Source of the DNA: Actinobacteria bacterium HGW-Actinobacteria-6
GTDB lineage: Bacteria; Actinomycetota; Coriobacteriia; Anaerosomatales; Anaerosomataceae
Length of the DNA stretch: 64,000 nucleotides
Direction of reading: 5' to 3'
Assembly: GCA_002841295.1 (NCBI GenBank)
Contig: PHEU01000007.1
Location: 6,417 to 70,416 of the forward strand
Shown: positions 25,607 through 60,653 of the stretch, piece by piece
How positions within the stretch are numbered: the stretch's first letter is position 1
Layout of the letters: the number at the start of each line of letters is the position of its first letter
Translations under genes and position numbers: made by a program
Notes under the pieces: model-generated
The model's input: only the letters and a program-made list of their open reading frames with translations
The model's database searches: none
Told to the model about the DNA's origin: nothing

Positions 25607-25626
25607 GAATCGGGAAGGGGAGCACC

Positions 25627-26394: not shown

Positions 26395-26396
26395 TC

Positions 26397-43340: not shown

Positions 43341-43646
43341 CTACTGCACGCAGCTCGAGTACTTGAGAAAGACCTTGATGGCTTCGTCGATGAGTTCGTC
43401 ACGAGACTTCTCGCCGTCTTCGACAAGACACGTCTTCATCGAGAAGCCTATGATGTGAAGACCGACCTGATTGAGCGCCGACTTTGCAGCCATGATCTGA
43501 GTCAGAACGGCCTCGCAATCCTTGCCGGACTCGATCATCGTCTGTAGGCCACGGATCTGCCCTTCAAGCCGCTTGAGCCTGTTGATGATCTTGCGTCGCT
43601 CTTCGTCGTTGCCGATTGAGTCGCTTGTGAGTTCAATGCCGTCCAT
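43341..43646 (-). CDS. CsoR/RcnR/FrmR-family (DUF156) metal- or thiol-responsive transcriptional repressor
   Basis: 101 aa. RLKRLEGQIRGLQTMIESGKDCEAVLTQIMAAKSALNQVGLHIIGFSMKTC is the family's alpha1-alpha2 core, with Cys at the X and Z ligand positions. Confidence 0.85.
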   Translation of the reverse strand: MDGIELTSDSIGNDEERRKIINRLKRLEGQIRGLQTMIESGKDCEAVLTQIMAAKSALNQVGLHIIGFSMKTCLVEDGEKSRDELIDEAIKVFLKYSSCVQ

Positions 43647-43702
43647 GGTGACTCCCTTGCGTCAGGAGCGGTTTGCCATACAATGATTAGGTTTGGCTCA
43701 CT

Positions 43703-43719
43703 ATACCCCCTGGGGGTAT
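43703..43719. promoter_or_regulatory. CsoR/RcnR-type operator ATACCCCC-T-GGGGGTAT shared by divergent promoters
   Basis: Minus strand, toward the repressor gene: TTGTCG (43729-43724)-N18-TATAGT (43705-43700). Plus strand, toward the CDF gene: TTGGCT (43693-43698)-N18-TATGCG (43717-43722). Confidence 0.7.
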
Positions 43720-43745
43720 GCGTCGACAAGCCGAGGGGGCATCGG

Positions 43746-44687
43746 ATGGGTTACAGCAAAACCAAGAGCGGCACCGACAACTCGCGGGCGGCTATGATCA
43801 AGCGGGTTCTCTGGATCATCCTCGGCTTGAACGTACTTGTTGCTGTTGCCAAGCTCGGATACGGCCTTATCACACGATCGGTTGGAATGACGGCCGACGG
43901 GTTCCACTCTATGTTCGACGGTACCTCGAACGTGATCGGGCTTCTCGCGATGGGCATTGCCGCGCGTCCCGCCGATAGCGATCACCCGTACGGACACTCG
44001 AAGTATGAAACGTTCGCGTCGGTTATCATCGGCGCGATGTTGATGCTGGCCGCCTGGCGCGTGGGAACCTCGGCTTTCGAGCGGCTCATGAACCCTGGCG
44101 AGCCAGCGCGGGTTGATGCCGTCTCGTTCGCCGTCATGATCGGCACGCTCTGTATCAACGTCTTTGTCACAAAGTACGAGCGTAAAGTAGGGGAGCGCCT
44201 GGGTAGCGAGATCCTTGTCGCGGACGCGAGCCACACCGGTAGTGACATTCTTGTGAGCATTGGCGTTATCGTCGGACTCATCGCGGTGAAGCTCGGATTT
44301 CCGATTGCGGATCCAATCGTCGGTCTTGTGGTCGCCGGATTCATAGTCTTCGCTGCGCTGCGTGTCTTCAAGTCCGCGAATGAGACGCTCTCCGACAGGG
44401 CCAGAATCGCACCCGAAGAGATCAGGGTCGTGGCTCTTGGGGTACCCGGTGTCCTGGGCTGCCATGAGGTTCGGACGAGAGGCCCTCTTGCCGAGGTGTA
44501 CGTGGACCTGCACATTCAAGTTGATCCGACGGTGAGTGTTGCCGAGGGCCATGCGATCGCCGAACGAGTTGAGAAGTCGATCTGTGAGAACCTGAGTCAG
44601 GTCACAGACGTTATTGCGCATCTTGAACCGCTCGATGAGTATCAGAGGCGAAAGACCGAACTACAAGTCGCCGAAGAATCGGAATAA
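43746..44687 (+). CDS. Cation diffusion facilitator (CDF) family divalent metal efflux transporter
   Basis: Start at ATG 43746 after GAGGGGG. TM2 HSMFDGTSN and TM5 HTGSDILVS form an H-D/H-D site. There is a C-terminal cytoplasmic domain (VRTRGPLAEVYVDLHIQVD). Confidence 0.9.
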   Translation: MGYSKTKSGTDNSRAAMIKRVLWIILGLNVLVAVAKLGYGLITRSVGMTADGFHSMFDGTSNVIGLLAMGIAARPADSDHPYGHSKYETFASVIIGAMLMLAAWRVGTSAFERLMNPGEPARVDAVSFAVMIGTLCINVFVTKYERKVGERLGSEILVADASHTGSDILVSIGVIVGLIAVKLGFPIADPIVGLVVAGFIVFAALRVFKSANETLSDRARIAPEEIRVVALGVPGVLGCHEVRTRGPLAEVYVDLHIQVDPTVSVAEGHAIAERVEKSICENLSQVTDVIAHLEPLDEYQRRKTELQVAEESE

Positions 44688-44690: not shown

Positions 44691-45671
44691 GTGCCGAAGC
44701 CCGTATCTGACGAAAACCGCAAGGACAAGCTGACTGGATACGGACTGGCCGTACTGGCCGCAGTGTGCTGGGCCACCGGGGGGCTTGGTGCGAAGTGGCT
44801 GTTCACGCCGCTGAACCCGACCACTGCCGGTTGGCCATTTCCGCCGCTCGGGATTGATATCGATCCCGTGATGCTGTCCGCATCGCGCGCCCTGGTTGCG
44901 TTTCTGATGCTCTTCACGTACCTGCTGATATCGCGCCGAAAAGCACTTCGAGTTCGTGTCGCAGACCTACCGTTTCTGGTGTTCTTCGGTGTCGTCGGAC
45001 TTGCGCTCGTCCATTTCAGCTACTTCAAGGCCATTTCGCTCACCAACGTCGCGACCGCGATATTGCTTGAGTATCTCGCGCCGGTGATCGTGCTCGTTGT
45101 GTCGGTCGGATTCCTGCGAGATCGTTTCACCTGGGCATTGCCGGCCTCGGTGCTGCTGTCGGTCACAGGTTGCGCACTCGTAGTAGGGGCTATTGGTGGC
45201 GCTGGGCTGAGTGTCTCCGGTGCCGGCCTGGCCTGGGGTCTCGCCTCTGCGGGATTCTTCGCGGGTTACACGCTCATGGGGCGCTGGGCGGCGCACAAGT
45301 TCTCGGCATGGACGCTGCTGACGTATGGGCTTGGCGCTGCAACGATATTCTGGTTCGTGGTGCTTGGTGGCCCGGGCTCCATCTTCGCGACGTTGTCTGA
45401 CATGCGCACGTTTGCGGCTGTGAGCTTCATTGCGTTCACAAGTACGGTCGTGCCGTTCGGGGCATTCCTGAAGGCCCTCAAGTACATTCGTGCGACCGAG
45501 GCTTCGGTAACCGCCACCCTTGAACCGGTTCTGGCAGCGATTCTTGCGTGGTTCTTGTTCCGCGAGTCACTCGGTGTGGCGCAGATGCTTGGAGGATTGC
45601 TGGTGATTTCAGCGATCGTCGTGTCACAGATGTCGCCCGCAGCCCGGGATGAGCTGCCGCCGGCAGTCTAG
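44691..45671 (+). CDS. EamA/DMT-superfamily permease
   Basis: Ten predicted TM helices in two EamA-like halves. GTG start 4 nt after the CDF stop. Confidence 0.75.
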   Translation: MPKPVSDENRKDKLTGYGLAVLAAVCWATGGLGAKWLFTPLNPTTAGWPFPPLGIDIDPVMLSASRALVAFLMLFTYLLISRRKALRVRVADLPFLVFFGVVGLALVHFSYFKAISLTNVATAILLEYLAPVIVLVVSVGFLRDRFTWALPASVLLSVTGCALVVGAIGGAGLSVSGAGLAWGLASAGFFAGYTLMGRWAAHKFSAWTLLTYGLGAATIFWFVVLGGPGSIFATLSDMRTFAAVSFIAFTSTVVPFGAFLKALKYIRATEASVTATLEPVLAAILAWFLFRESLGVAQMLGGLLVISAIVVSQMSPAARDELPPAV

Positions 45672-45710
45672 TATGTGGTGAGAACCGCGATTTCGTGGGA
45701 ATATATCTTC

Positions 45711-45726
45711 TGGTACGTAGTTTGCT
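45711..45726 (+). promoter_or_regulatory. Candidate sigma-54 (-24/-12) promoter TGGTAC-GTAGT-TTGCT upstream of rpoN
   Basis: The GG and GC dinucleotides have the canonical spacing (positions 2-3 and 14-15), as in TGGCAC-N5-TTGCW. It lies 48 nt upstream of the rpoN ATG. The -24 element deviates at one position (TGGTAC versus TGGCAC). Confidence 0.5.
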
Positions 45727-45773
45727 AAGGGCCGCGCCATCGCGCCTGGGGACGACGTACCAGAGGAGTCTCA

Positions 45774-47168
45774 ATGGAACTCTCCCACAGGCCGGAACTA
45801 CGGCACAAAGTCACCTTGTCGCCCCAGGTCTATCAGGGGCTCACTATTCTTGCAATGCCGGTCGCTGAGCTTCAGATGCTGATCGAGACCGAGCTGCTGG
45901 AGAACCCCGTCCTTGAGTTGGAAGAGGACGAGCACGAGCCCGCGGAGGAACTCGATGACCGCGTCGACGATTCCGAAGAAGAGCGCGCCTGGGATGACTG
46001 GCTTGACCAGTACGATGACCTCGAGCAGCTGGATTCAGGTTCTCCGCGCGATCCGAACCAAGAGGAGATCAACTCCGAAGACTTTGTCGGCGGAGTACAG
46101 TCCTTCGATGACTATCTGCTCGATCAGCTGGGCATGATCGAAGCTCCGGAGGACGTTGCCCGCGCCGCACGCGCGATCATCGGCTCACTGGACAATGACG
46201 GCCTGTTCGTCGGAGATAGTGCTGAGATAGCTGCAATCACCGGTGTCAGCGTTGCCGTGGCCGACAAGGCGCTCTCGGTCGTCCAGCAGCTTGACCCTCC
46301 CGGAGTCGGTGCCAGGAACGTTCGCGAAGCTCTGAGGATTCAGGCTGCGTACCTCGGGATAGACACCCCGCTCCTCCTTGCACTCATCGAGCGTCATCTC
46401 GACGCCGTGGCTGTGAGTCACACGCGCAAGATCGCGCGTGCGGAGCATGTCAGCGAGGACGAAGTGCGCGACACCGTTGAGAAGCTCAAGCAACTCAATC
46501 CTCGACCAGCCGGGGCATTCTCCCCCGGGCACGCGCCCGGCTATGTGGTCCCGGATGTCACGCTACGCCGTTTTGGGGACGAGTGGCTCATTATCCCGAA
46601 CAATGAGGCTGTTCCTACGCTGAAGGTCTCTCCTCGGTACAGGCAGATGCTTCGAAGCCAGTCGAGCGCGGATGACGAAACACGCAAGTACCTCAAGGAC
46701 AAGATTCGCTCGGCAGAATCGTTCCTGCGCAACGTTGATCGTCGCAGGGACACCGTGAGCCGCATCGCGGAGATCATCTTGGAGACCCAGCATGACTTCT
46801 TCGAGGACGGACGCGGGGACATGCGTCCGCTGCGCCTGGAAGATGTCGCTGTTGAGATCGGCGTGCATCTCAGTACGATAAGTCGGGGCGTCACCGGGAA
46901 GTACATGGCGACTCCGTACGGACTCTTTGAGTTGAAGCACTTCTTCTCGGGCGGCTACCGAACCTCGAGCGGTATGGACGTGGCTGCAACCACCGTGAAG
47001 CGGCGGATCAAGGAGTTCCTTGAGGCAGAGGATCCCGCGCACCCGCTGTCCGATCAGAAGCTTGCCGAGGCGCTCTCAGGCGAGGGCGTCGATGTGGCGC
47101 GCCGGACGGTCGCGAAGTATCGCGAGGAGATCGGCATCGACCCGTCGTGGGCGAGGAAGCGCCGATGA
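45774..47168 (+). CDS. rpoN: RNA polymerase sigma-54 factor
   Basis: 464 aa with a Gln/Leu-rich region I (LSPQVYQGLTILAMPVAELQMLIETELLENPVLE), an acidic region II, a core-binding region, an HTH and the RpoN box (ARRTVAKYRE). Confidence 0.95.
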   Translation: MELSHRPELRHKVTLSPQVYQGLTILAMPVAELQMLIETELLENPVLELEEDEHEPAEELDDRVDDSEEERAWDDWLDQYDDLEQLDSGSPRDPNQEEINSEDFVGGVQSFDDYLLDQLGMIEAPEDVARAARAIIGSLDNDGLFVGDSAEIAAITGVSVAVADKALSVVQQLDPPGVGARNVREALRIQAAYLGIDTPLLLALIERHLDAVAVSHTRKIARAEHVSEDEVRDTVEKLKQLNPRPAGAFSPGHAPGYVVPDVTLRRFGDEWLIIPNNEAVPTLKVSPRYRQMLRSQSSADDETRKYLKDKIRSAESFLRNVDRRRDTVSRIAEIILETQHDFFEDGRGDMRPLRLEDVAVEIGVHLSTISRGVTGKYMATPYGLFELKHFFSGGYRTSSGMDVAATTVKRRIKEFLEAEDPAHPLSDQKLAEALSGEGVDVARRTVAKYREEIGIDPSWARKRR

Positions 47169-48703
47169 AGCCAGAGAAGCAGCAAACCGAGCGCATGGGC
47201 GACAAGCTTGACCAAACACTCGTCACAGGCCAGAGAAGCGACGGGCGGGATGTTGCGCTCATCGTGATCTTGCTCGGCGTTATCACCGTTCTGCATCTGT
47301 TCACGACCACATCGGCTCAGGCCATGCCGATGCATCTGCTGTACCGCAAGCTGTACTACCTACCGATCATGTACGCAGGTTTCGTGTTTGGCCGACGCGG
47401 CGGTTTCATCACGGCGATCGCAGCGAGCTTGCTGTTTGGATTGCACGCTACGGTCTCATTGGGCGGCCTTCTCGGTGTGCATATCGACAACCTCTACGAG
47501 ATCGTGATGTACCTCGCTGTCGGTGTGATGTTCGGCTGGTTGCGTGATCTTGCCGAGGCCAAGACGAGCGACCTGCGTCAGTTGAGCAAACAGCTTGAGG
47601 AAGCGTACCGAAAACTAGAAGAGCGCGCGATACAACTCGTCAACATCCAGGACTACACCCAGTCGATCCTGCGCTCTATCACGTCGGGCGTCATGACTGT
47701 TGGTCCTGACGGCTCAGTCGCGACCGCCAACCCGGCCGCCGAGCGCATGTTGGGCGTGCGGGAGGTCGACATCGTCCCTCGGCGTATCGGTACGCTCTTC
47801 GCCGATGACTCAGGGCTCGACGCCGAGGTAACGAAGGTTCTCAACGGTCGCATCCCGAAGTCTGTCCGCGACATGCGACTGGTCACGCGGGCGGGCAGAG
47901 TGCTCCACGTGCAGGTCTCCACTTCGCGCATGCGCGATGTCGATGGCCGCATACTCGGCGCCGTCGTCACCATTGAGGATGTGTCCGAGGTCAAGGCGCT
48001 GACAGACCAACTTATCCGTGCTGATCGACTCGCAGCCATGGGCGAATTGACGGCGGGCGTGGCGCATGAGGTTCGAAACCCGCTCGGCATCATCAGGGCT
48101 TCGGTCCAGCTGGTTGAGGAATCTGGATGCGACCGCAGTAGGGTGCTGGAGGCGACGAGCGTCATCAAGCAAGAGATCGACCGCCTCGACCGCGTCATCA
48201 AGGCCCTGCTCGACTTCGGAAGGCCGTCGAAGCCATACCTACGACTAACGGACATGGGAGAAGTCATCGAGGACGTCATTTTGTTCACGCGCCGGTTTGC
48301 CGGACAATCGAAGGTGACGATCTCAGCCACCGACACCGGATCTCTGCCACAGATCATGGCTGACCCCGATCAAATGAAGCAGGTCTTTGTGAACCTCGTT
48401 TCGAACGCCGTGCAAGCGATGGAAGGCACGGGAGGCAAGATTTCTCTCAGTGGGCGGGTTGTTGACGGGTTCCTTTCGATCTCAATCTCGGACGACGGTC
48501 CCGGAATTCCCGCCGCAGACGTCAAGAAGGTATTTGATCCGTTCTACTCGACGCGTGATGCGGGTACGGGTCTCGGGTTGACGATCGTGCATCGTATTTT
48601 GGATGAGCACGACGGACACATCGAAGTCATAAGCGACCTTGGGCAGGGCACAACGTTCATCGTTTCCCTGCCTGTGTTCCAGATCAATGAGGAGGACCGA
48701 TGA
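47165..48703 (+). CDS. Sensor histidine kinase (membrane domain, PAS, HisKA, HATPase_c; NtrB/AtoS-like)
   Basis: ATG 47165 overlaps the rpoN stop (ATGA). There are four N-terminal TM helices, a PAS domain (SILRSITSGVMTVGPDG) and the H-box GELTAGVAHEVRNPL. N, G1 and G2 boxes are present (NLVSNAVQAM, DDGPGI, GTGLGL). Confidence 0.9.
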   Translation: MKPEKQQTERMGDKLDQTLVTGQRSDGRDVALIVILLGVITVLHLFTTTSAQAMPMHLLYRKLYYLPIMYAGFVFGRRGGFITAIAASLLFGLHATVSLGGLLGVHIDNLYEIVMYLAVGVMFGWLRDLAEAKTSDLRQLSKQLEEAYRKLEERAIQLVNIQDYTQSILRSITSGVMTVGPDGSVATANPAAERMLGVREVDIVPRRIGTLFADDSGLDAEVTKVLNGRIPKSVRDMRLVTRAGRVLHVQVSTSRMRDVDGRILGAVVTIEDVSEVKALTDQLIRADRLAAMGELTAGVAHEVRNPLGIIRASVQLVEESGCDRSRVLEATSVIKQEIDRLDRVIKALLDFGRPSKPYLRLTDMGEVIEDVILFTRRFAGQSKVTISATDTGSLPQIMADPDQMKQVFVNLVSNAVQAMEGTGGKISLSGRVVDGFLSISISDDGPGIPAADVKKVFDPFYSTRDAGTGLGLTIVHRILDEHDGHIEVISDLGQGTTFIVSLPVFQINEEDR

Positions 48704-50049
48704 AACGGCGCGTACTGATTGCCGATGATGAGAAGAACATGCGCTGGGTGCTTGCCCAGGCATTGAGCGCTGAAGGGTACGAGGTGCAGGAGGCGGCCGA
48801 CGGTAAGGCAGTTCTGGCCGCCGTCAATGAGCAGCCGCCGGATCTTATGGTTCTCGACCACAAGATGCCCGCGCCGGACGGCATGGAGGTTCTGCGTCGG
48901 CTGCGGGCCAAAGGACACTCGTTCCCGATCATCATGCTCACAGCGCACGGCAATGTGACGAGCGCTGTTGAGGCGATGAAGGCGGGCGCAAGCGAGTATC
49001 TGACGAAGCCATTCGATCTTGAAGAGTTGAAGATCAGCATTGAGAAGGCCCTGAAGGTCAGCGAGCTCTCGGCCGAGGTCACACGGCTTCGCGAGGAGCT
49101 CGACCGGGACTACGACGTCTCGGGAATCGTTGCGGCCGATCCGTCGATGCTCGGCATCCTTGAGACCATTCGCAAAGTTGCTCCGACGAGTGCCACCGTC
49201 ATGGTCTATGGCGAGTCAGGTACGGGCAAAGAGCTCGTAGCCCGGGCTATGCACACAATGTCGGCCCGTTCGACCAAGCCGTTCATCTCTGTGAGCGCAG
49301 GCGCGTTGCCCGAGACGCTTCTGGAGAGTGAGCTGTTCGGGTACGAAAAGGGCGCCTTCACTGGTGCAATGCAGGCAAAACCCGGGCGTTTCGAACTCGC
49401 AAACGGCGGGACGATATTCCTGGATGAAATCGGGGACATCAGCCCGAACGTGCAAGTCAAGCTGCTGCGGGTACTGCAGGAGAGGACTTTTGAGCGCCTT
49501 GGCGGCACACGTCAGATCGAGGTCGATGTTCGCGTCGTGGCGGCTACCAACCGGGATATCCAGCAGCTGATTGCCGACGGGGATTTCAGAGAGGATCTCT
49601 ACTACCGGCTCAACGTCGTCCCTGTCACCTTGCCGCCGCTTCGGCAGAGACCAAGCGAGATTCCGCTTCTGATCGCGCACTTCCTTGAGAAGTACAAGGC
49701 CGGCGACAGGCACTTCTCCGACGAGGCCATGAGGCTATTGGTCGAATATCAATGGCCCGGCAATGTCCGCGAACTTGAGAACACCATCGAGCGGATAGGA
49801 ATCCTTGCCCGCGGCGAAGAAATCGATATTGATGATCTGCCTTCGGAGGTGCGCGCCGGAGTCGCGATGTGCTCACCCGGCGAACGATGTTTCGTTCTGC
49901 CAGAGGTCGGAATCAGCTTGGAAGAAGTGGAACTCGACTTCTTGCGACAGGCGCTTGAACGCACTGGCGGTTCGGCTCCCAAGGCCGCAAAACTCCTCGG
50001 TCTTACAACCAAGACCCTGGAAGCCCGAATGGAGAAGTTCGGCTTGTAG
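48700..50049 (+). CDS. Sigma-54-dependent response regulator (NtrC family: REC, AAA+ with GAFTGA, Fis-type HTH)
   Basis: REC domain (DLMVLDHKMP), Walker A GESGTGKE, GAFTGA loop (EKGAFTGA), and a C-terminal HTH (APKAAKLLGLTTKTLEARMEKFGL). ATGA overlap with the kinase stop. Confidence 0.95.
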   Translation: MKRRVLIADDEKNMRWVLAQALSAEGYEVQEAADGKAVLAAVNEQPPDLMVLDHKMPAPDGMEVLRRLRAKGHSFPIIMLTAHGNVTSAVEAMKAGASEYLTKPFDLEELKISIEKALKVSELSAEVTRLREELDRDYDVSGIVAADPSMLGILETIRKVAPTSATVMVYGESGTGKELVARAMHTMSARSTKPFISVSAGALPETLLESELFGYEKGAFTGAMQAKPGRFELANGGTIFLDEIGDISPNVQVKLLRVLQERTFERLGGTRQIEVDVRVVAATNRDIQQLIADGDFREDLYYRLNVVPVTLPPLRQRPSEIPLLIAHFLEKYKAGDRHFSDEAMRLLVEYQWPGNVRELENTIERIGILARGEEIDIDDLPSEVRAGVAMCSPGERCFVLPEVGISLEEVELDFLRQALERTGGSAPKAAKLLGLTTKTLEARMEKFGL

Positions 50050-50076
50050 CCGCAGCCTCCGCTGACTGTCAACCCT

Positions 50077-50092
50077 TGGCACGAGGCTTGCA
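50077..50092 (+). promoter_or_regulatory. Sigma-54 (-24/-12) promoter TGGCAC-GAGGC-TTGCA
   Basis: Perfect match to TGGCAC-N5-TTGCW. It lies 28 nt after the NtrC-family gene stop and 40 nt upstream of ATG 50132. Confidence 0.75.
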
Positions 50093-50131: not shown

Positions 50132-50488
50132 ATGCATCCACAGAGCAAGCGAAGAGTGGTCGTTGTTGCAGCGGGTATCATCGCTGTCGTTTCGCTTGTC
50201 GCCGGACTCATTCTGCTCGTCAATGCCGAGGACGGATTCTCCGGTTGCACGGGTGCGGCTGAGTTTGGTTGGCTGGCGCCTTTGCTGGCAGCGTCGATCA
50301 TCGGCGGCCTCGCCTGGGTACTGTTGGCTCAAGATCCTCCTGCGGCCGATGATGCCGGAAACACGCAGATCGCGGAATGCCCGGAGTGCAAACGAGCGGT
50401 TCTCGGCCAATGGCGAATGTGTCCATACTGCGGAGAGATGCTCGATCCTCGCTACTCCACCCGCGCGGCAGCGTCACAGAACAAGTAG
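50132..50488 (+). CDS. Two-TM membrane protein with a C-terminal zinc ribbon (CPEC-x12-CPYC)
   Basis: 118 aa with two hydrophobic helices, then ECPECKRAVLGQWRMCPYCGEML. RBS AGGGTGAAG. No named family recognised. Confidence 0.6.
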   Translation: MHPQSKRRVVVVAAGIIAVVSLVAGLILLVNAEDGFSGCTGAAEFGWLAPLLAASIIGGLAWVLLAQDPPAADDAGNTQIAECPECKRAVLGQWRMCPYCGEMLDPRYSTRAAASQNK

Positions 50489-50509: not shown

Positions 50510-50740
50510 GTGCTTATGTCTGAGTTGGTCACAACGCGCTTCGCTACGACCGGTATGCACTGTCACTCATGCTCGATGCTCATCCAGATGAGCCTCGACG
50601 ACGTTGACGGCATTGAGAGCGCGGTTGCGGACAGTGCGTCTGGTATGACGGAAGTCGTCTACGATGCCGAGCGTGTTACTCCCGAGGTTATCATCTCGGA
50701 AATCGTTAAGGCAGGGTACGGCGCTGAGGTTGCCGAGTAG
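50510..50740 (+). CDS. Heavy-metal-associated (HMA) domain metallochaperone, CopZ-like
   Basis: 76 aa. TTGMHCHSCSMLI is a GMxCxxC motif in a beta-alpha-beta-beta-alpha-beta sized protein. GGAGGTG lies upstream. Confidence 0.85.
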   Translation: MLMSELVTTRFATTGMHCHSCSMLIQMSLDDVDGIESAVADSASGMTEVVYDAERVTPEVIISEIVKAGYGAEVAE

Positions 50741-50758: not shown

Positions 50759-50775
50759 ATACCCCCCGGGGGTAT
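50759..50775. promoter_or_regulatory. CsoR/RcnR-type operator ATACCCCC-C-GGGGGTAT in the ccdA promoter
   Basis: TGGACG (50750-50755)-N17-TATAGT (50773-50778). The palindrome again fills the spacer, and its terminal TAT starts the -10 hexamer. Confidence 0.65.
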
Positions 50776-51647: not shown

Positions 51648-54600
51648 TTGAGCCAGTCGAAGAGGGCGGACGGTGGGATGGCACGGTCAAGACCGTTCAA
51701 GCGTAGTCTTGCGAACCGATACACGTTGCTGGTTGCCGTCCTCGTGGGTTTGACCACGCTGATTCTCGCGAGCGCGCTCGCCAGCGGCGTCTACCGTATG
51801 GCTCTGGGCGAAGAGTCTTCACGACAGCGCGCGCAGGGCGAGCTTATCGTTCGGGATGTTTCCAATCGGCTCCAGTCGTCGTTTCGGGTGCTTCGCACAC
51901 TCGCAAGTCGCGACGTCATCGTCGGTGGCGACGACCGGGCAGTCGGGAAGGCGCTTGCGAGCGCGTACGTCGACAATGCCGAGTACCTGCGGGGAATCGC
52001 GCTCTACAGCTTTGAGGGCTCTCCGACGGTCATGTATCCCCAAGATCAGGCGCTGCCGTCCGATGATGTGATTCGTGGCTCGAACCTCTCTGAGGGCGTC
52101 GCGTACCTTTGGCTGGAGGCAGATGACCCAACCCCTGCATCGCTGTGGGTACTGGTTCCGATTCAGCTGTCGGATGGCTCTGAGTCCGTGCTTCTCGGCG
52201 CCGTGCGCACGGCGTTCATCGATGATGTTCTCAAACAAGTGAGCTTCTCTGAGAAGTCGCCGACCGCTCTGATCGTCGACTCGGCCGGGACATCCGTACT
52301 GACTGCCGGTGACCCACAGGTCTATCTGAACTCAAATATCGAGTACGACCCATCAGGGGATGATTCCGGACTCGGTTCGGTGCTGGTCGCCTCTGCGGCA
52401 GGGCAGAGATTCAGGGGCGTCTACGCGGACATATCAGGTCTGACGGGACTTGACTGGCGCGTGGTTGTGACCGAGCCGGACACCATCGTTGCCGCCGAGA
52501 CCTGGCAGGCGCTACGGCCTGCCGTGTTCGCGTGGGGCGCATCTTCAGTCATCGCACTCATTCTTGCGCTCGTCTCGGTGGCCTGGCTTGCGAGGCCTCT
52601 CAGGCTACTGGATGAAAGGGCGCGCGCGGCCGCATCCGGGGCGATGCTCGAACCGCTTCCAGTCACGCGGAGTGATGAGATCGGCCGACTGATCGAGTCT
52701 TTCAACTCCGTCGGTCAGCGTCTGAACCGCATGCACGACATGTCGCAGATGCTTGCCCGCTCGGCTGACCTTGACCAGGTTCTGGATCTTGTTCTCGTGT
52801 CGCTAGGACGGATCTTGGTTGTCAAGGACGTGGGCATCATGCTTCTAGAGGACGAGGGACGGACCCTGTGGCTGGCGCGGGCAGCTGGCACGCTCGCGAA
52901 GTCGGCGGGAGCCAGAATCAAGACCGATTCATCGCGCTGGCTGGCAGAGGTGGTAGCCACGCGTGAGATGGCCGAGTTCATTGGAGAAGTGATCTCAGAT
53001 CCGGTCATCATGCTTCGGGGCGCTGACGATACATCGCTGAGGGCGCTTGCTGTGCCGTTGGTCAAGGGCGAAACGATGCTCGGTGTCATGGTCGTGATGC
53101 ACGGGGCCGAGGAGGCATTCAGCGACGCCGAGGCAGAGCTTGCGCGCTCCTTTGCTGCACAGGCATCGGTTGCCCTCGACAACGCGAGGCTCTTTGCCGA
53201 GGAGCGGCGCTCCAGGAGAGATGCTGAGGCACTGCGACACGTTGCCGAGATAATGGGAGGGGCTGACTCGCGACGGGATTCGCTGAGCTTGATCGCGGGC
53301 ATCGAAGCCGAGCTGCTCGACGCCGACCTGTCGTGGGTATTCCTTGAGGGCGGGAGTGCGATGCGTGGCACCGCCGAGGAGGCGTTGGCCGGTTCGTGGC
53401 TCTCGCTGTGGCGACGTCTGCATGCCGAGCGTTCGTTTGCTGATACTTCGATGCCTGTCGCGCTTACGGACGCTGATACGGATCCTGAGGTTCGTTCTCG
53501 CCTCCGCGGACTCGGCGTGCGGATGGTTGTGATCTCGCCGATCACAGTGAGCGACTCGCTGGCCGGCCTGGTCGTGCTGGGGTGGTCCAACCGGACCTAT
53601 CAGCTCGACAAACGTGCCAACGAACTGACCTCGGCGATAGGCAAGCAAGTTGCGCTCGCGCTGCAGAACGCCATGCTATTCGACGAGGCGCGGACCCGCG
53701 CGGACAACCTTGAGACGATCTTCCGAATATCGCAGGCGGTAAGTTCTTCGTTGCAGAGCAAGGTCGTGCTCAATCGCGTGCTCGACGTCGTCCAGAAGAT
53801 CCTCTCGGCAGATGCCGTGATGCTCATGACGCTCGACGTCGATCGTTCTCTCATGATCGTCCCGATGGCCCGGGGAATCCTCAGCCCTGAGATGCTGCAG
53901 ATGGAGTTTCGTGCAGGCGAAGATCTGCCTGGTGAGGTCTTTGAACATAAAGAGCCAGTGAATGTTATCGATCTTGCTGACTCGGCCTCTCCTCTTGCTC
54001 GGTTGGCCGCGTCACAGGACCTTGGCTCGGCGGTATTCGTCCCGCTGCTCGCGCGAGGCCGGTCTATCGGCGTACTCGCGGTGTTCTCCCGGGACAAGAA
54101 CGCGTTCATTCCTGAAGAGGTGGAGCTGCTCAGGACGTTTGCCACTCAGGCTGCGCTTGCTATTGATACCGCGAACCTCTTCAGCCGCGAACATCATGTC
54201 GCGACAGTGCTTCAGCACAGTATCCTTCCAACCAGGCTTCCGCTGATCGAGGGCATCGAGTCGTCGAGCGTATACGTTCCGGCCGGAAGTGAGGTAGAGA
54301 TCGGTGGCGATTACTACGATCTGTTCCTAGCTCCGGATGGGCGGGTAGCGCTGGCAATCGGCGATGTTTGCGGGAAAGGCGTAGAGGCTGCGACCAAGAC
54401 ATCGATGATCAAGTATTCGGTCAGGGGCATGATTGCGGCAGGAGCGAGCCCTTCGGATATTCTCGCGGAGCTCAATCGGGCGCTCGTTGCAGCCGGTGAC
54501 CCATCCGATATCGTGACAGTGTGGCTGGGATTGCTTGATATCGGGACCGGTCGACTCTCCTGGGCGAATGGAGGGCACCCGCCTTCGATGCTTCTGCAAC

Positions 54601-54941
54601 CCGAAACCGGGGAGATCGTCAGACTTGGGACCACGGGAGCGCTTCTCGGCGCGATCAACTCCGCCGAGTATGGGGAGTCTGAGGTTATCGTTGAGCCGGG
54701 CAACACGATTCTCCTGTATACCGATGGTGTAACGGAAGCGCGTAGCCAGGGCCGTTTCTTTGGTGAAGGTCGTGTGAGACGCGCGCTTCGACAGGGCGGC
54801 AGTCCGGCTGTGGTCACGCAGCGCCTGCTGGCGTCGGTACAGCGATTCTCTCACGGGGACCTCCGTGATGATGCCGCAATACTCACACTCATGCTCAAGG
54901 GCCCGGTCGAAGATCAGCCCCGCGGTGTTTCGGTACAGTGA
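51648..54941 (+). CDS. Large membrane sensor phosphatase: extracytoplasmic sensor domain, HAMP, about three GAF domains, PP2C (SpoIIE/RsbU-type)
   Basis: 1097 aa with two TM segments flanking a periplasmic-like domain of about 270 aa. HAMP domain (RPLRLLDERA...IGRLIESFNSVGQRL), repeated GAF-like blocks, and a C-terminal GGDYYDLF...IGDVCGKGVEAA...YTDGVTEA. The start is TTG 51648 or ATG 51678. Confidence 0.85.
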   Translation: MSQSKRADGGMARSRPFKRSLANRYTLLVAVLVGLTTLILASALASGVYRMALGEESSRQRAQGELIVRDVSNRLQSSFRVLRTLASRDVIVGGDDRAVGKALASAYVDNAEYLRGIALYSFEGSPTVMYPQDQALPSDDVIRGSNLSEGVAYLWLEADDPTPASLWVLVPIQLSDGSESVLLGAVRTAFIDDVLKQVSFSEKSPTALIVDSAGTSVLTAGDPQVYLNSNIEYDPSGDDSGLGSVLVASAAGQRFRGVYADISGLTGLDWRVVVTEPDTIVAAETWQALRPAVFAWGASSVIALILALVSVAWLARPLRLLDERARAAASGAMLEPLPVTRSDEIGRLIESFNSVGQRLNRMHDMSQMLARSADLDQVLDLVLVSLGRILVVKDVGIMLLEDEGRTLWLARAAGTLAKSAGARIKTDSSRWLAEVVATREMAEFIGEVISDPVIMLRGADDTSLRALAVPLVKGETMLGVMVVMHGAEEAFSDAEAELARSFAAQASVALDNARLFAEERRSRRDAEALRHVAEIMGGADSRRDSLSLIAGIEAELLDADLSWVFLEGGSAMRGTAEEALAGSWLSLWRRLHAERSFADTSMPVALTDADTDPEVRSRLRGLGVRMVVISPITVSDSLAGLVVLGWSNRTYQLDKRANELTSAIGKQVALALQNAMLFDEARTRADNLETIFRISQAVSSSLQSKVVLNRVLDVVQKILSADAVMLMTLDVDRSLMIVPMARGILSPEMLQMEFRAGEDLPGEVFEHKEPVNVIDLADSASPLARLAASQDLGSAVFVPLLARGRSIGVLAVFSRDKNAFIPEEVELLRTFATQAALAIDTANLFSREHHVATVLQHSILPTRLPLIEGIESSSVYVPAGSEVEIGGDYYDLFLAPDGRVALAIGDVCGKGVEAATKTSMIKYSVRGMIAAGASPSDILAELNRALVAAGDPSDIVTVWLGLLDIGTGRLSWANGGHPPSMLLQPETGEIVRLGTTGALLGAINSAEYGESEVIVEPGNTILLYTDGVTEARSQGRFFGEGRVRRALRQGGSPAVVTQRLLASVQRFSHGDLRDDAAILTLMLKGPVEDQPRGVSVQ

Positions 54942-54989: not shown

Positions 54990-55772
54990 TTGGAAATCGA
55001 CCTGGAACATCGATTCGATGCGCACGTATGTGTTGTGCGTATGGATGGAGAGCTTGATCTTGGTACCGTCCCGCAGGTCCGGGACAGGATTTCTGACGCA
55101 CTAGCGAGTGGGTGCGTGAACGTTGTACTCGATATGTCACGCGTTGCGTATGCGGACAGTTCAGCGTTCGGACTTCTGGTTTGGCTGGATCGGGAGCTGG
55201 AGCCTCGTGGAGGCAAGCTGGTTCTGGCTGGAGCGAACCTCAATGTGGGACGTGTATTGGAGCTTTCCGGGCTCGTTGGTGCTGCGCCTACCATCGCAGC
55301 TGCTGACGATGTATCGAGCGCGCTCTCCGGGCTAGTGGTTATCGACAAGAACGAGCCGCCGCTTTGGGTTGAGCGAATCACGTTGCCTGCGTCTGCTGAT
55401 ACGCTGGCTGCCGCTCGAGCGCGCGTTTGTGAGATGCTCGAGTCCCTCAGTATTCCTGAGACGAGTCTGTTCGACATTCGCGTTGCGGTCGGGGAGGCCC
55501 TCGCGAATGCTATTCGGCACGGGTCGCCGGGTGGTGAAGCAGACACGATATCCGCCGAGCTGAGTGCATTTTCAGACCGGGTCATGATTCGCGTGTCAGA
55601 CTCGGGCAGCGGTTTTGATGGGTGCGCCTCGCCGAGCGGAGACCTTTACGCGGCATCAGGTCGCGGGGTCATGTTCATGCGCGCTCTGATGGATCAGGTT
55701 GAGTTCGAATCTTGTACAGATGGCGGAACGGTTGTGACGCTCGTTAAGCACACGGTCAGGGAGCATGTCTAG
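54990..55772 (+). CDS. Fusion protein: STAS anti-sigma-factor antagonist (RsbV/SpoIIAA-like) plus anti-sigma factor serine kinase (RsbW/SpoIIAB-like HATPase_c)
   Basis: The N-terminal half has STAS features: VVRMDGELDLGTVPQVRD, VVLDMSRVAYADSSAFGLLV (phosphorylatable Ser context), and LAGANLNVGRVLELSGL. The C-terminal half has the kinase N-box VAVGEALANAIRHG and G-boxes (VSDSGSGFD, GRGVMFMRALMD). Confidence 0.8.
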   Translation: MEIDLEHRFDAHVCVVRMDGELDLGTVPQVRDRISDALASGCVNVVLDMSRVAYADSSAFGLLVWLDRELEPRGGKLVLAGANLNVGRVLELSGLVGAAPTIAAADDVSSALSGLVVIDKNEPPLWVERITLPASADTLAAARARVCEMLESLSIPETSLFDIRVAVGEALANAIRHGSPGGEADTISAELSAFSDRVMIRVSDSGSGFDGCASPSGDLYAASGRGVMFMRALMDQVEFESCTDGGTVVTLVKHTVREHV

Positions 55773-55880
55773 CCGCGCAGCGTAAGTGCGCACAGGGGCT
55801 CGAACGGTTATGCTGTACATGGCTGGGCGGTTAGCAACGCTCCGACCTTGACTCCTGTTCGTTCTCCGTGGAGGTGCCTG

Positions 55881-56450
55881 ATGGAGTTGCTTGCCGCATT
55901 GCGCAACCGTCATTCGACCCGGCTCTTCAAGAGCCAGCCGGTCAGCGACGAAGAAATCCGTGCGCTGTGCGACGCGGCGTTGCTGGCACCATCGGCTATG
56001 AACAGCCAGCCGTGGCATTTCTATGTCGCTACAGGCGATTCCCGGAATGTGGTCGGCGAGATCATGTCGCTCACCACACTTCATCTCCAGGAGTACATTG
56101 AGGTTCTCGGGGTTGAGGTTGTCGAACGCGCGGCTCGGTTCTACGAGGACATGGGAATGGCCCCCGTCATCATCGCGGTCGCTACGCCGGTGTTCACTGA
56201 TTCTACAGAACAGCGTGACGCCTACATTGCAGTGGGTGCCGCTATCGAGAACTTCTTGCTGCTCGCGGTTGATTCCGGTCTAGGGGCCTGCAATATTTCA
56301 GCCCCACGGTGGGTGGTCGATCAGCTGATGGACGCATTCGGCATCCCTGAGAACAACGTGATCGCCTCGCTCATCATCGTCGGGCACCCCGATGAGGCTC
56401 CGCTCGCGCAGGAGCGCCACCGCGACGTGGTGACTTTCGTCTCCAGATGA
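55881..56450 (+). CDS. Nitroreductase-family flavoprotein
   Basis: Start at ATG 55881 after GGAGGTG. RHSTRLF..QPV and APSAMNSQPWHF are nitroreductase motifs. Confidence 0.85.
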   Translation: MELLAALRNRHSTRLFKSQPVSDEEIRALCDAALLAPSAMNSQPWHFYVATGDSRNVVGEIMSLTTLHLQEYIEVLGVEVVERAARFYEDMGMAPVIIAVATPVFTDSTEQRDAYIAVGAAIENFLLLAVDSGLGACNISAPRWVVDQLMDAFGIPENNVIASLIIVGHPDEAPLAQERHRDVVTFVSR

Positions 56451-57154
56451 TTCTTCGAGCTGTCTTCTTCGATGTGGGCAATACGTTGCTGCGCCCGTTT
56501 CCGAGCGTTTCAGAGGTGTGCCGTCAGGTTCTCGCCGAGGCAGGTCATGTGCATGACCTCTCGGCAATTGATGCGCTCATGCCTCTAGTTGATGAATACT
56601 ATGAGGATCGCTACCGCGCCGACGATACCTTCTGGACTGACGAGGAGGAGACATCCTCCGTCTGGGTGGGGATGTACTCGCTCATGTGTCGGCGACTAGG
56701 CATCAAAGATGACGCTGTCCATCTGGCGCGCAGGGTCTATGAAGAGTTCGGCAAACCGTCCCGGTGGGCAGCGTACCCGGACGTCTTGCCAGCGCTCGAC
56801 CGTCTTCGCGCAATGGACTTGCGGCTCGGCGTCATCTCAAATTGGGATAGCCGTTTGTCCGGATTGCTTGAGGCATTGGGTATCGGTGAACGTATGGATT
56901 TCGTGCTTTCTTCCGCCGAGGTAGGATTGCACAAGCCAGATCCTCGAATCTTCGAGTTGGCATGCGAGCGAATGGGTGTTCTGCCGGAAGAGGCTGCTCA
57001 TGTGGGAGATCACCACTACGCAGATGTGCTTGGTGCGAGGGCAGTGGGGATGACTCCGGTTCTGATCGACCGGAGTGGGCAGATGCCGTTGCTGGTGGGA
57101 CCTGCTCCAATAACAGACTTCGATACGCTCGAGGCAGTTCTCGGGCTGAGCTAG
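56447..57154 (+). CDS. HAD-superfamily hydrolase (subfamily IA)
   Basis: Motif I FFDVGNTLL, motif II ISNW, and motif III-IV K...HVGDHHYADVLGA. Confidence 0.85.
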   Translation: MILRAVFFDVGNTLLRPFPSVSEVCRQVLAEAGHVHDLSAIDALMPLVDEYYEDRYRADDTFWTDEEETSSVWVGMYSLMCRRLGIKDDAVHLARRVYEEFGKPSRWAAYPDVLPALDRLRAMDLRLGVISNWDSRLSGLLEALGIGERMDFVLSSAEVGLHKPDPRIFELACERMGVLPEEAAHVGDHHYADVLGARAVGMTPVLIDRSGQMPLLVGPAPITDFDTLEAVLGLS

Positions 57155-57164
57155 GGGAGGACCG

Positions 57165-58649
57165 ATGGCGGTCAAGGATCTTCGTGAGTTCATGGCGCTG
57201 CTTGAGAGCCGGGGCGAGTTGAAGCGTGTGTCGGCGGAGTTGGACCCGGTGCTGGAAATCGGGGAAGTCACCGATCGCGTCAGCAAGGCGAATGGGCCCG
57301 GACTGCTCTTCGAGAACCCGGTGGACCGCTCGACTGGCAAGCGGTACACCATGCCGGTTGCAATCAATCTCATGGGCTCATATGACCGTATGGCCTGGGC
57401 TATGGGTGTTGATGCCGAGACGGGCTCGTGGAAGGACCTGGACGCGGTAGCGAAGCGGGTTATGGACAAGCTGCCGCTCGACATGCCTGCCTCGATGAAG
57501 GGCAAGCTCGACGTGCTGATGGGCCTCAAGGATCTTGCGGGGGCGGGCCCGAAAGAGATCAAGAAGGCACCGTGCCAGGAGGTCGTGCTGCGTGGCGACG
57601 ATGTCGATCTTGGCATTCTGCCCGTTCTCAAGACGTGGCCGGACGATGGTGGACCGTTCATCACACTCCCGCTGGTTGTGACGGCTGATCTCAAGGGCAA
57701 GCCCAATATCGGCATGTATCGCATGCAGGTGTTCGACCGCACTACCACGGGGATGCACATCCACGAGCACCATGACGGCGCGAGAAATCTCCGCGAGCAG
57801 TTCGCAGCTGGCGTGACGCGCGTACCGGTCTCGGTTGCACTCGGAGCCGATCCCGTCACGATCTTCTCGGCAACAGCTCCTGTGCCGCCCATCATCGACG
57901 AGTATCTGTTCGCGGGAATACTGCGCGGTGAGAGCGTCGAGGTCGTCAAGTGTGTCACTAACGACCTGCTTGTTCCTGCGCACGCCGAGATCATCTTGGA
58001 GGGATACGTCGAGGCGGGGGAGACACGCTGGGAGGGCCCATTCGGCGACCACACCGGCTACTACTCGCTTGCCGATAACTTCCCGGTCTTTCACGTGGAA
58101 GCGATCACCATGCGCAAGGACGCCATCTATCCGGCGACCATCGTTGGTCGACCGCCGATGGAAGACTGCTACCTCGGCAAGGCGACAGAGCGGCTCTTCC
58201 TGCCGGTGGTCAAGGCGATGATGCCGGAGGTCGTCGACTACGACCTACCGCTCGAAGGCGTGTTCCACAACTGCGTTATCTTCCAGATCAAGAAGGAGTT
58301 CGCGGGACAGGCGTTCCGTGTGATGAACTTCGCGTGGTCGATGGGACAGATGATGTTCACTAAGTTCGTGATCGTGGTCGATGAAGACGTGGATTGTCAC
58401 GATTACTCGCAGGTGGCATGGCGCTGCTTCAACAACGTCGATCCGAGCAGGGACATCCTCGTCTCCAAGGGGCCGCTTGATCGCCTCGATCACAGCAGCA
58501 ATCTGCAGTCCTTCGGCTACAAGATGGGCATCGACGCCACTCGGCCGGTTGAGAACGAGGGTCATGACCGAGGCTGGCCCGACGCGCTTGAGATGACTGC
58601 TGAGGTCAAAGAGCGCATCGACAGCGTGTGGGGGAGTCTCGGCCTGTGA
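57165..58649 (+). CDS. ubiD: UbiD-family (prFMN-dependent) decarboxylase
   Basis: 494 aa. LREFMALLESRGELKRV N-terminus, PGLLFENP, MYRMQV, and FGDHTGYYS. Confidence 0.9.
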   Translation: MAVKDLREFMALLESRGELKRVSAELDPVLEIGEVTDRVSKANGPGLLFENPVDRSTGKRYTMPVAINLMGSYDRMAWAMGVDAETGSWKDLDAVAKRVMDKLPLDMPASMKGKLDVLMGLKDLAGAGPKEIKKAPCQEVVLRGDDVDLGILPVLKTWPDDGGPFITLPLVVTADLKGKPNIGMYRMQVFDRTTTGMHIHEHHDGARNLREQFAAGVTRVPVSVALGADPVTIFSATAPVPPIIDEYLFAGILRGESVEVVKCVTNDLLVPAHAEIILEGYVEAGETRWEGPFGDHTGYYSLADNFPVFHVEAITMRKDAIYPATIVGRPPMEDCYLGKATERLFLPVVKAMMPEVVDYDLPLEGVFHNCVIFQIKKEFAGQAFRVMNFAWSMGQMMFTKFVIVVDEDVDCHDYSQVAWRCFNNVDPSRDILVSKGPLDRLDHSSNLQSFGYKMGIDATRPVENEGHDRGWPDALEMTAEVKERIDSVWGSLGL

Positions 58650-59536
58650 TCAGAGTCGTCGAGAAGCTGAAGGTGCTGCTTGAGCTCGTGAAGTTCGAGC
58701 ATTCGATCTTTGCGTTGCCGTATGCGTTCATCGGAGCGCTCTACGGCGCTGCGGCTGTCGCCAGCGATAATGGTGCTGGTTGGCCCACGCCTGCAGCGAT
58801 TCTCTGGGTCGCAGTTGCGATGGTGGGTGCCCGGGCGTTCGCCTTCGTACTGAACCGGGCGGTCGACAAGGAGATTGACGCCAGGAACCCACGGACCGCG
58901 GGCCGCGCGATACCCGCCGGACTGATCAAGGCGTGGGAGCTCTGGCTGTTCGCGGTGTTCATGTTTGCCGCATACCTGCACGCTGTCTTCCAGCTCGCCC
59001 CCATCACACACTGGTTGTGGCCCGTCCCGCTCGCTGCCTTTGTGGCATACCCGTACATGAAGCGATTCACTCCGCTGTGTCACTACTGGCTTGGCCTCTG
59101 CCTCGGACTCGCGCCTGTTGCCGGGTGGGTGGCTGTCGGTGCGCCGATCAGCTCGTCCGCTCCGTGGGTTTTCGGTCTGGCCGTCATGCTATGGACTGCG
59201 GGCTTTGACATGATCTACGCCACGCAAGACGTCGCCTGCGATGTACGTGACGGCATCCACAGTATGCCTGCGGACTTCGGAATCCCTGTCGCGCTGCTGC
59301 AGACGCGAATCACGCACGTGCTGACGGTTCTGCTGCTTGCGTTCGGTGGAGTCCTCGCTGGTGTAGGCTGGGCGTGGTACGCGGGTGTGAGTCTGGCTGC
59401 GGCACTCTTGTGGTATGAGAACAGCATCGTGCGGGCGGATGATCTGTCGAAGGTCAACGCGGCGTTCTTCACAGTGAATGGCGTCATCGCGGTCGTCGTG
59501 TTTGTCGGCTCGCTCGTAGATCGCCTTCTCGGCTAG
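58628..59536 (+). CDS. ubiA: UbiA-family aromatic prenyltransferase (4-hydroxybenzoate polyprenyltransferase / MqnP-like)
   Basis: NRAVDKEIDARNPRT (first Asp-rich motif) and a second motif YATQDVACD. Eight to nine TM helices. The start may be GTG 58646, overlapping the ubiD stop. Confidence 0.88.
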   Translation: MGESRPVIRVVEKLKVLLELVKFEHSIFALPYAFIGALYGAAAVASDNGAGWPTPAAILWVAVAMVGARAFAFVLNRAVDKEIDARNPRTAGRAIPAGLIKAWELWLFAVFMFAAYLHAVFQLAPITHWLWPVPLAAFVAYPYMKRFTPLCHYWLGLCLGLAPVAGWVAVGAPISSSAPWVFGLAVMLWTAGFDMIYATQDVACDVRDGIHSMPADFGIPVALLQTRITHVLTVLLLAFGGVLAGVGWAWYAGVSLAAALLWYENSIVRADDLSKVNAAFFTVNGVIAVVVFVGSLVDRLLG

Positions 59537-60579: not shown

Positions 60580-60653
60580 TGGAGGCGACGCCCGGATTCG
60601 AACCGGGGATAAAGGCTTTGCAGGCCTCTGCCTTGCCACTTGGCGACGTCGCC
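60580..60653 (-). tRNA. tRNA-Cys (anticodon GCA), CCA encoded
   Basis: The reverse complement folds as GGCGACG...anticodon loop CTGCAAA...GGTTCGAATCC...CGTCGCC-T-CCA. Confidence 0.9.

Follow-up and report, generated by a model that had tools for sequence, protein, structure and literature searches.

Transcription of rpoN, the gene for sigma-54, from a promoter that sigma-54 itself recognises has its closest described precedent in Rhodobacter capsulatus, where a nifU2-rpoN superoperon is served by a weak constitutive promoter and by a promoter activated by NifA and RpoN (Cullen et al. 1994, as summarised in PMC6925177). There, rpoN sits behind a sigma-54- and activator-dependent promoter and auto-activates, the weak constitutive promoter gives the first molecules, rpoN is linked to a nif gene, and NifA and its regulators are encoded elsewhere. 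Here we analyse a 64,000-nucleotide stretch of contig PHEU01000007.1 from Actinobacteria bacterium HGW-Actinobacteria-6 (the window), in which rpoN, a sensor histidine kinase gene and an NtrC-class activator gene form an overlapping operon between two predicted -24/-12 promoters. As in R. capsulatus, rpoN lies behind a predicted sigma-54-dependent promoter; unlike R. capsulatus, the kinase and activator genes are in the rpoN operon, the host is actinobacterial and the apparent output is an operon for a metal-related membrane protein. We consider it probable from sequence that the locus works as a sigma-54 module that is inducible and positively autoregulated, takes its first supply from a weak sigma-A element or from read-through, and lies within a metal and thiol island controlled by CsoR.

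Other described systems share parts of this design. In the E. coli two-component system for zinc and envelope stress, ZraS/ZraR-zraP, an NtrC-class regulator and its kinase are made from a sigma-54 promoter that they activate, as is proposed here, and autoregulation by ZraR is noted in PMC12316311. There too the output is a small protein of the envelope with a link to metal stress, and of the named models ZraR and ZraS score comparatively well with the window proteins. The scores are nevertheless far under the model cut-offs (ZraR 401 against 760, ZraS 201 against 479), the first output gene of the window, here called zr, is not homologous to ZraP, and rpoN lies outside the zra operon. Borrelia and Chlamydia combine sigma-54 with one activator (Francke et al., PMC3162934). 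Like Chlamydia CtcB/CtcC and Borrelia Rrp2-RpoN, the window encodes a small sigma-54 system with an NtrC/AtoC-like activator, the best named models here being AtoS and AtoC. In neither genus is rpoN known to share an operon with the kinase and activator genes and, unlike in the window, no sigma-54 promoter has been described before their rpoN genes. Cereibacter sphaeroides RpoN3 works with one dedicated activator, AprX, on a narrow target set; unlike the window gene it belongs to a proteobacterium that has four rpoN paralogues, and it has no nearby kinase and no reported auto-activation (PMC11999139). Autoregulated operons of ECF sigma factors, in which a sigma factor and a dedicated sensor or regulator lie behind a promoter of that same sigma and so form an inducible private regulon, are analogous in circuit design only, since the sigma family is unrelated (sigma-70 group IV) and acts by anti-sigma release rather than ATP-driven activation. 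The genes and promoters concerned in the window are the following.

45710-45726, + strand: predicted sigma-54 promoter of the rpoN-kinase-activator operon, CTGGTACGTAGTTTGCT, 48 nt before rpoN, with a predicted transcription start near 45737
45774-47168, + strand: rpoN (sigma-54), 464 aa, with Pfam Sigma54_AID, Sigma54_CBD and Sigma54_DBD
47165-48703, + strand: membrane sensor histidine kinase, with N-terminal hydrophobic segments, coiled coil, PAS, HisKA and HATPase_c
48700-50049, + strand: NtrC-class enhancer-binding response regulator (the activator), with Response_reg (REC), Sigma54_activat (AAA+, GAFTGA), AAA_lid_14 and HTH_8
50076-50092, + strand: predicted sigma-54 promoter of the zr-HMA operon, TTGGCACGAGGCTTGCA, 40 nt before zr, with a predicted transcription start near 50103
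50132-50488, + strand: zr, first gene of the output operon, for a membrane protein of 118 aa that has two hydrophobic segments and, at its C terminus, a zinc ribbon (CPEC...WRMCPYCG)
50516-50740, + strand: HMA/CopZ-like metallochaperone, 74 aa, motif GMHCHSC, matching NCBIfam CopZ/MerP-type models

The initial annotation of this DNA had named the three cassette genes and proposed that they are translationally coupled, and both proposals are supported by the Pfam domains, all of which exceed the Pfam cut-offs, and by the gene overlaps. ATGA overlaps join rpoN to the kinase gene at 47165-47168 and the kinase gene to the activator gene at 48700-48703; the junctions read GCGCCGATGAAGC and GGACCGATGAAAC, with Shine-Dalgarno-like GAGGAAG and AGGAGGA, respectively, just before them. 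The kinase open reading frame starts at ATG 47165, and a GTG further upstream at 47147 is also open. In RpoN, region I scores 42.1 bits with PF00309 (cut-off 23.8) and can be aligned to its counterpart in a structure-solved sigma-54, and the core-binding (PF04963, 155.6 bits) and DNA-binding (PF04552, 185.7 bits) domains follow. The protein aligns with the structure-solved sigma-54 over its full length, carries an exact RpoN box (ARRTVAKYRE) and passes the NCBIfam equivalog TIGR02395 (389.2 bits, cut-off 277.35). By these comparisons the window rpoN is an intact, bona fide sigma-54 gene. Its product is predicted to bind core RNA polymerase and -24/-12 promoters in closed complexes that depend on an AAA+ activator for opening, to which the conservation of cognate boxes points indirectly.

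The activator translation contains the Walker A motif GESGTGKE, the GAFTGA loop and a Fis-type helix-turn-helix (PF00072, PF00158 at 238 bits, PF25601 and PF02954), and its best PDB match is the Aquifex NtrC-family structure 4l4u (3.4e-102, residues 4-449). It scores below the NCBIfam equivalog cut-offs of AtoC (482/714), NtrC (446/558.6), NtrX (386/600), GlrR (356/763) and ZraR as given above, and is therefore an NtrC-class protein that belongs to none of these named orthologues. The kinase carries an H-box and an ATPase domain. Its best NCBIfam model is AtoS (357 bits, under the cut-off of 646), the likeness lying in the PAS-HisKA-ATPase part, and its N-terminal hydrophobic region has no Pfam match.

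The cassette lies between two boxes, one before rpoN and one before zr. The pattern TGGYAC-N5-TTGC occurs twice in the window, at 45711 and 50077, both times on the + strand and in an intergenic region, against 0.17 matches expected from 100 dinucleotide-preserving shuffles, one of which gave two. These are the upstream and downstream -24/-12 boxes of the initial annotation; both motifs are present and conserved across the order, and the scan for further sites, run on the 64 kb, returned only this pair. The upstream TGG had been placed correctly at 45711, and the 17-mer begins one base before the coordinate given for it, at 45710. Both boxes fit a YTGGCACGrNNNTTGCW-type pattern, have GG and GC 10 nt apart and face a gene.

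The boxes were compared with the related loci of the deep-branching order Anaerosomatales. The order cation-efflux gene (cdf)-transporter gene (eamA)-rpoN-kinase-activator-(zr)-dsbD-GAF/PP2C is kept in 20 species-level genomes, with RpoN identity down to 65%. TGGTAY-N5-TTGC precedes rpoN in all 19 loci with upstream flank, 42-75 nt from the start codon, and TGGCAY-N5-TTGCA follows the activator gene in 15 of 18. Two loci, L012 and L013, are without zr and without the second box; in L015, genes are inserted after the activator gene, zr-HMA lies 2.4 kb off and its box, CTGGCACACCTGTTGCA, has travelled along. When the cultured species Anaerosoma tenue and the displaced L015 site are included, the rpoN box is found in 21 of 21 loci and the zr box in 18 of 18 zr-bearing loci, and TGG.A and TTGC are invariant in all 39 sites. 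Compared pairwise, the 16-nt block has a mean identity of 0.79 for the rpoN box and 0.78 for the zr box, while neighbouring 16-nt blocks have 0.29-0.31 with the exception of three blocks adjoining the boxes (0.30, 0.36 and 0.44). Both boxes are, on this comparison, under strong purifying selection while their flanks have fallen to random-level identity. Chance occurrence of the boxes was considered and rejected on the two matches against 0.17 expected together with the order-wide conservation.

Fixed differences separate the two classes of promoter. At position 4 all 21 rpoN boxes have T and all 18 zr boxes C, position 16 is T in 19 of 21 against A in 18 of 18, and position 11 is T in 18 of 21 while none of the 18 zr boxes has T there; as patterns, rpoN sites read TGGTAY..TTTGCT and zr sites TGGCAY..VTTGCA. 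Such class-specific bases could reflect tuning of affinity or overlap with a -10 element. A relaxed scan for TGGNAN-N5-NTGC over 333 kb gave no further good consensus site besides the displaced one in L015, and no second activator gene was found in the roughly 330 kb of related loci or in the 64-kb window.

The second box precedes a two-gene operon, zr-HMA, in every locus with zr, and on the evidence of these loci it is linked to zr. The HMA gene, which the initial annotation did not list, follows zr directly and lies before ccdA. The zr product matches Pfam Zn_ribbon_3/DZR below the cut-off. Its orthologues in the related loci are 110-135 aa long and likewise have two hydrophobic segments, the C-terminal ribbon reading CxxC...WR(M/L)CP(Y/H)CG, and the next gene encodes an HMA orthologue of 73-77 aa with the motif GMHCxSC.

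The module is, from comparison of sequences, chromosomal and vertically inherited in the order Anaerosomatales. Homologues of the window RpoN at 70-96% identity come from metagenome-assembled genomes labelled Coriobacteriia or Actinobacteria, and that of A. tenue (Actinomycetota, Coriobacteriia, Anaerosomatales, also known as OPB41) is 72% identical. A 1.0-Mb contig of A. tenue carries the same order of genes (csoR, cdf, eamA, rpoN, kinase, activator, a 116-aa gene, HMA, dsbD, GAF-PP2C and STAS-kinase), including an HMA gene call with Pfam HMA, and has both boxes, TGGTACGCTGTTTGCT and TGGCACGTCGCTTGCA, in a region of about 67% G+C. The homologue taxonomy and this syntenic block bear out the Actinomycetota-like context that had been noted from the window alone. 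Exhaustive representative searching placed the RpoN clade in one 50% cluster, followed by a sister group at 43% and then by a cloud at 35-40%. Horizontal acquisition had been raised as a matter for phylogeny and composition; the G+C of the cassette (0.59-0.61) equals that of its surroundings and is not anomalous. The remainder of the window holds uvrA, uvrC, rapZ, gap, pgk, pgm and amtB with glnD, genes that mark it as ordinary chromosomal core. Two other origins were considered and ruled out: a metagenome binning artefact, since the block sits on a 1.0-Mb contig of axenic A. tenue, and a recent transfer or mobile cassette, given the order-wide synteny and the lack of a compositional anomaly.

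An all-in-one operon of this kind is unusual among the rpoN loci compared. We sampled 80 diverse metagenome rpoN loci whose RpoN is 30-41% identical to that of the window. Of these, 38 have at least 3.5 kb of sequence downstream of rpoN, and in none of them does that stretch encode an activator AAA+ domain on the strand of rpoN; the single locus with a nearby activator has it upstream of rpoN. In 2 of 60 loci the 250 nt before rpoN contain a perfect TGGCAC-N5-TTGC. The view taken at the outset that the arrangement departs from the usual one agrees with these counts. The 2 of 60 show that rpoN genes of other lineages can also have a sigma-54 box, which PMC12316311 predicts as well. These two loci, L036 and L063, have the perfect box 53 and 99 nt before the rpoN start and no adjacent activator; by sequence they are candidates for sigma-54 autoregulation in other lineages.

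The sister lineage retains the cassette in another setting. Its RpoN is 41-42%, its kinase 46-47% and its activator 61-63% identical to the window proteins, and rpoN, kinase and activator are again contiguous in a different genomic neighbourhood. The zr homologue lies several kb from the cassette, adjoins a cupredoxin gene in L023, and is preceded by a sigma-54 box, TTTGGCATCCTTCTTGCT or CTGGCACGGTCTTTGCT; the link from sigma-54 to zr is therefore older than the order. At the place equivalent to the rpoN promoter there is no -24/-12 box in the sister lineage, where a conserved extended -10 box is found (GGTGCTAGAAT, GGTGCTAAAAT and GGTGATACAAT). Directly after the activator gene lies a gene for a PcsB/M23 peptidase, itself preceded by a box TTGGA(G/A)C-N5-TTGCTCGATAC, and a further TGGCATGACGATTGCT is found 3' of the peptidase gene (boxes at 8417 in L022 and at 14373 and 15649 in L025). 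These sites suggest that a cell-wall hydrolase is an extra sigma-54 target in the sister lineage. L023 also has a long perfect palindrome, GGGGACGTAGGTTGACTTGTTGACTTTTCGCCCGGGCGAAAAGTCAACAAGTCAACCTACGTCCCC, right after its activator gene (about 12190-12260), which was not seen in the other loci and may be a terminator or a repeat element.

The cassette and its output are set among genes for metal and thiol functions that appear to be under CsoR control.

43341-43646, - strand: CsoR-family metal-sensing repressor gene, Pfam Trns_repr_metal at 89.9 bits, in the same position in A. tenue
43683-44687, + strand: CDF cation-efflux gene (cdf), Pfam Cation_efflux and ZT_dimer
43704-43718, no strand assigned: CsoR type-2 operator, TACCCCCTGGGGGTA, in front of cdf-eamA
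50760-50774, no strand assigned: second CsoR type-2 operator, TACCCCCCGGGGGTA, overlapping a sigma-70-like promoter (TGGACG-17-TATAGT) before ccdA/dsbD

The true CDF start is probably ATG 43746. Both sites fit the CsoR operator consensus TAC-X9-GTA / ATATACCCCTNAGGGGTATAT (PMC3902906), and the operator pattern has two matches in the window, at 43704 and 50760, against 0.02 expected. A third type-2 operator lies at 42345, and three operators (TACCC-N4-6-GGGTA) occupy the same three places in most related genomes. These predicted operators, which the initial annotation did not include, front a thioredoxin/DUF302 group, cdf-eamA and ccdA, and those at 43704 and 50760 bracket the cassette. The best reading of this arrangement is that the sigma-54 cassette is embedded in a metal and thiol island controlled by CsoR.

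Taken together, our results support a model in which the kinase would sense a membrane, metal or thiol-related signal and phosphorylate the activator. The activator would then oligomerise and spend ATP to open closed complexes of the sigma-54 holoenzyme at two promoters. From the TGGCAY-N5-TTGCA promoter the output operon zr-HMA would be expressed, giving a membrane zinc-ribbon protein and a metallochaperone. From the TGGTAY-N4-TTTGCT promoter, 48 nt before rpoN, more sigma-54, kinase and activator would be made, a positive feedback that would render the response switch-like. From sequence we infer the promoters at which the activator works, that the feedback is positive, how the loop is primed and what signal is sensed, as well as the self-contained nature that the initial annotation gave to the cassette.

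A closed positive loop would need an initial supply of all three proteins. This supply may come from a weak sigma-A -10-like element beside or within the -24 box, from read-through of the CsoR-controlled cdf-eamA genes, or from both. Two features of the window are relevant here.

44691-45671, + strand: EamA-family transporter gene (eamA), Pfam EamA, directly upstream of rpoN
45697-45709, + strand: AT-rich box GGGAATATATCTT immediately before the -24 element, which may be a weak -10 region for sigma-A

Taking a -10-like hexamer as a match of at least 5/6 to TATAAT with A2 and T6, such hexamers are present within -30 to +12 of the TGG in 11 of 21 rpoN promoters against 0 of 18 zr promoters. In six loci the hexamer is the -24 box itself (TGGTATAAT, TGGTATATT and TGGTATGAT), that is, the box can be read as an extended -10; in the other loci GGGAATAT(A/G)C or CATAAT lies a few nucleotides upstream. 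GGGAATAT(A/G)C is conserved in the subclade of the window, whose own best -10-like hexamer matches at 4/6 only. As for read-through, eamA keeps its position and orientation in all related loci with upstream flank, no terminator-like site was found between eamA and rpoN in the window, and cdf-eamA lies behind a CsoR operator, so that read-through would be metal-dependent. The initial annotation had proposed that read-through from eamA bootstraps the loop; this is plausible, but the sigma-A -10-like element is an equally good or better candidate.

RNA structure bears on the same question. A 13-bp stem at 45706-45768 (+) pairs CUUCUGGUACGU, comprising the -24 box and 4 nt 5' of it, with ACGUACCAGAGGA in the Shine-Dalgarno region of rpoN, with a pairing probability of 0.75-1.0, a minimum free energy of -39 kcal/mol and z = -3.56. 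The stem needs RNA begun upstream, as a transcript from the sigma-54 promoter is without the 5' arm. It is strong in the window and in L001, L003, L004, L017 and L018, and absent in at least seven loci, which are more distant relatives. Translational insulation of read-through RNA as a general mechanism was considered and dropped for that absence. An Rfam scan of the window returned four tRNAs and no other family.

Several observations weigh against the positive loop. No activator site common to both promoter regions was found among shared 7-mers or exact dyads with 5-nt half-sites and gaps of 0-16; nothing rose above 3-5 genomes, and matches within the zr set fall in conserved activator coding sequence. 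The zr and pcsB promoters that have no activator gene before them were also inspected and likewise revealed no shared site. The gap from stop codon to -24 box is short, and any upstream activator site would therefore lie inside coding sequence. The stem is predicted to hide the rpoN Shine-Dalgarno sequence in read-through RNA, which argues against a read-through primer in the subclade of the window. Autoregulation is no inherent property of the cassette, which in the sister lineage appears to be driven by a promoter of sigma-A type. The T in place of the consensus C at position 4 may make the rpoN box a weaker binding site or signify another purpose, and another sigma-54 activator could act at the rpoN promoter.

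Some of these observations would fit feedback of the opposite sign. Negative autoregulation has been reported for the rpoN genes of Pseudomonas putida and of rhizobia, and the rpoN box might mainly serve this end, with the closed complex occluding the sigma-A -10 or blocking eamA read-through and so setting the level of sigma-54. The -10-like hexamers that overlap or abut the -24 box, such as TGGTATAAT and TGGTATATT in the six loci described, would suit such a role, as would the T4, T11 and T16 that set the rpoN box apart from the zr promoter, and the sister lineage with only a sigma-A-type promoter at rpoN. The box has, however, all the elements of a -24/-12 promoter with the right spacing, points towards rpoN from a usual distance and immediately precedes the operon that encodes the very activator by which it would be fired. 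As an operator only, it would have no need of the -12 TTGC, which is kept in 21 of 21 loci. Repression with the activator off and activation with it on can also coexist at the rpoN box. We regard a mainly negative role as unlikely.

A second possibility is an ordinary global sigma-54 with many activators, in which the adjacent pair controls zr-HMA only and another activator fires the rpoN promoter; the feedback loop would then not be closed, nor the cassette self-contained. The systematic difference between the two promoter classes could mean different activators, no upstream site common to both was found, and at least three boxes of sigma-54 type lie close to the cassette of the sister lineage, at zr, at pcsB and at a third place. 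Set against this are the lack of a second activator gene in the loci surveyed and the fact that the only consensus box beyond the two conserved positions is a displaced zr promoter. The linkage of rpoN, kinase and activator moreover outlasts the change of genomic context between the two lineages and is seen in 0 of 38 diverse rpoN loci, which points to a functional unit. An ordinary global sigma-54 seems to us quite unlikely here. That the motifs are due to chance, or are conserved for RNA structure or as the binding site of another protein, is very improbable, for although the -24 box of the window is one arm of a stable hairpin, that hairpin is confined to one subclade, the invariant bases are exactly the sigma-54 consensus with GG-N10-GC spacing at 39 sites between randomised flanks, and the cognate sigma factor is encoded next door.

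The window has further genes of note. Downstream of dsbD are two genes of the partner-switching type: a 1097-aa HAMP-GAF-GAF-PP2C(SpoIIE) phosphatase (51648-54941, + strand) and, next to it, a fused STAS (anti-anti-sigma) and RsbW-like kinase (54990-55772, + strand). A second protein of this type, MASE3-GAF-PP2C, is encoded at 34547-36580 (- strand). Nitroreductase, HAD hydrolase, UbiD and UbiA genes (55848-59536, + strand) lie 3' of the partner-switching genes. Genes for the ammonium transporter and the glnD-like uridylyltransferase share one strand at 11018-15087 (- strand), and a housekeeping run that includes uvrA, uvrC, rapZ, gap, pgk and pgm lies at 15232-27923 (+ strand); rapZ is thus unlinked to rpoN in the window, contrary to the situation in Proteobacteria. 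The tRNA genes form a Cys/Gly/Val cluster at 60580-60967, with tRNA-Leu at 34400-34485.

A wider proposal, that of a private, inducible, ECF-like sigma-54 with a dual-sigma rpoN promoter native to Actinomycetota, is put forward as a tentative possibility. Under this proposal the cell would have no, or hardly any, sigma-54 system besides this one, which would switch itself on and control a tiny regulon for copper or thiol stress (zr with HMA or cupredoxin). The -24/-12 promoter would be overlaid on an ancestral extended -10 (TGnTAnAAT to TGGTAY-N5-TTGC), so that the sigma-A holoenzyme would prime the promoter and the sigma-54 holoenzyme would both gate and amplify it. The sister-lineage extended -10 at the same place suggests a route by which a sigma-54 promoter could replace or overlay a sigma-A promoter.

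Published surveys hold that Actinobacteria lack the sigma-54 system (Francke et al. 2011, PMC3162934), in agreement with the statement in the initial annotation that sigma-54 is generally reported absent from the phylum. The paper describing Anaerosomatales makes no mention of sigma factors and its supplement has no sigma-54 content, and no relevant paper that brings together rpoN or sigma-54 and Coriobacteriia or Anaerosomatales came up in full-text searching. The proteins already carry a sigma-54 label in database annotation, and the gene itself is therefore not a discovery. What appears to be undescribed in the literature searched are the conserved promoters, the circuit and their bearing on the generalisation about the phylum.

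If the wider proposal of a private sigma-54 is correct, a functional sigma-54 would be native to Actinomycetota at 60-67% G+C, against the published view that the phylum lacks functional RpoN and against the suggestion that high G+C is incompatible with recognition of sigma-54 promoters. The generalisation about the phylum is contradicted by a whole actinobacterial order, including a cultured isolate, that keeps an intact rpoN, its activator and two selected boxes. With positive autoregulation the cassette would be a compact, natural all-in-one sigma-54 switch with positive feedback; its parts are few and A. tenue can be cultured, which makes the system testable.

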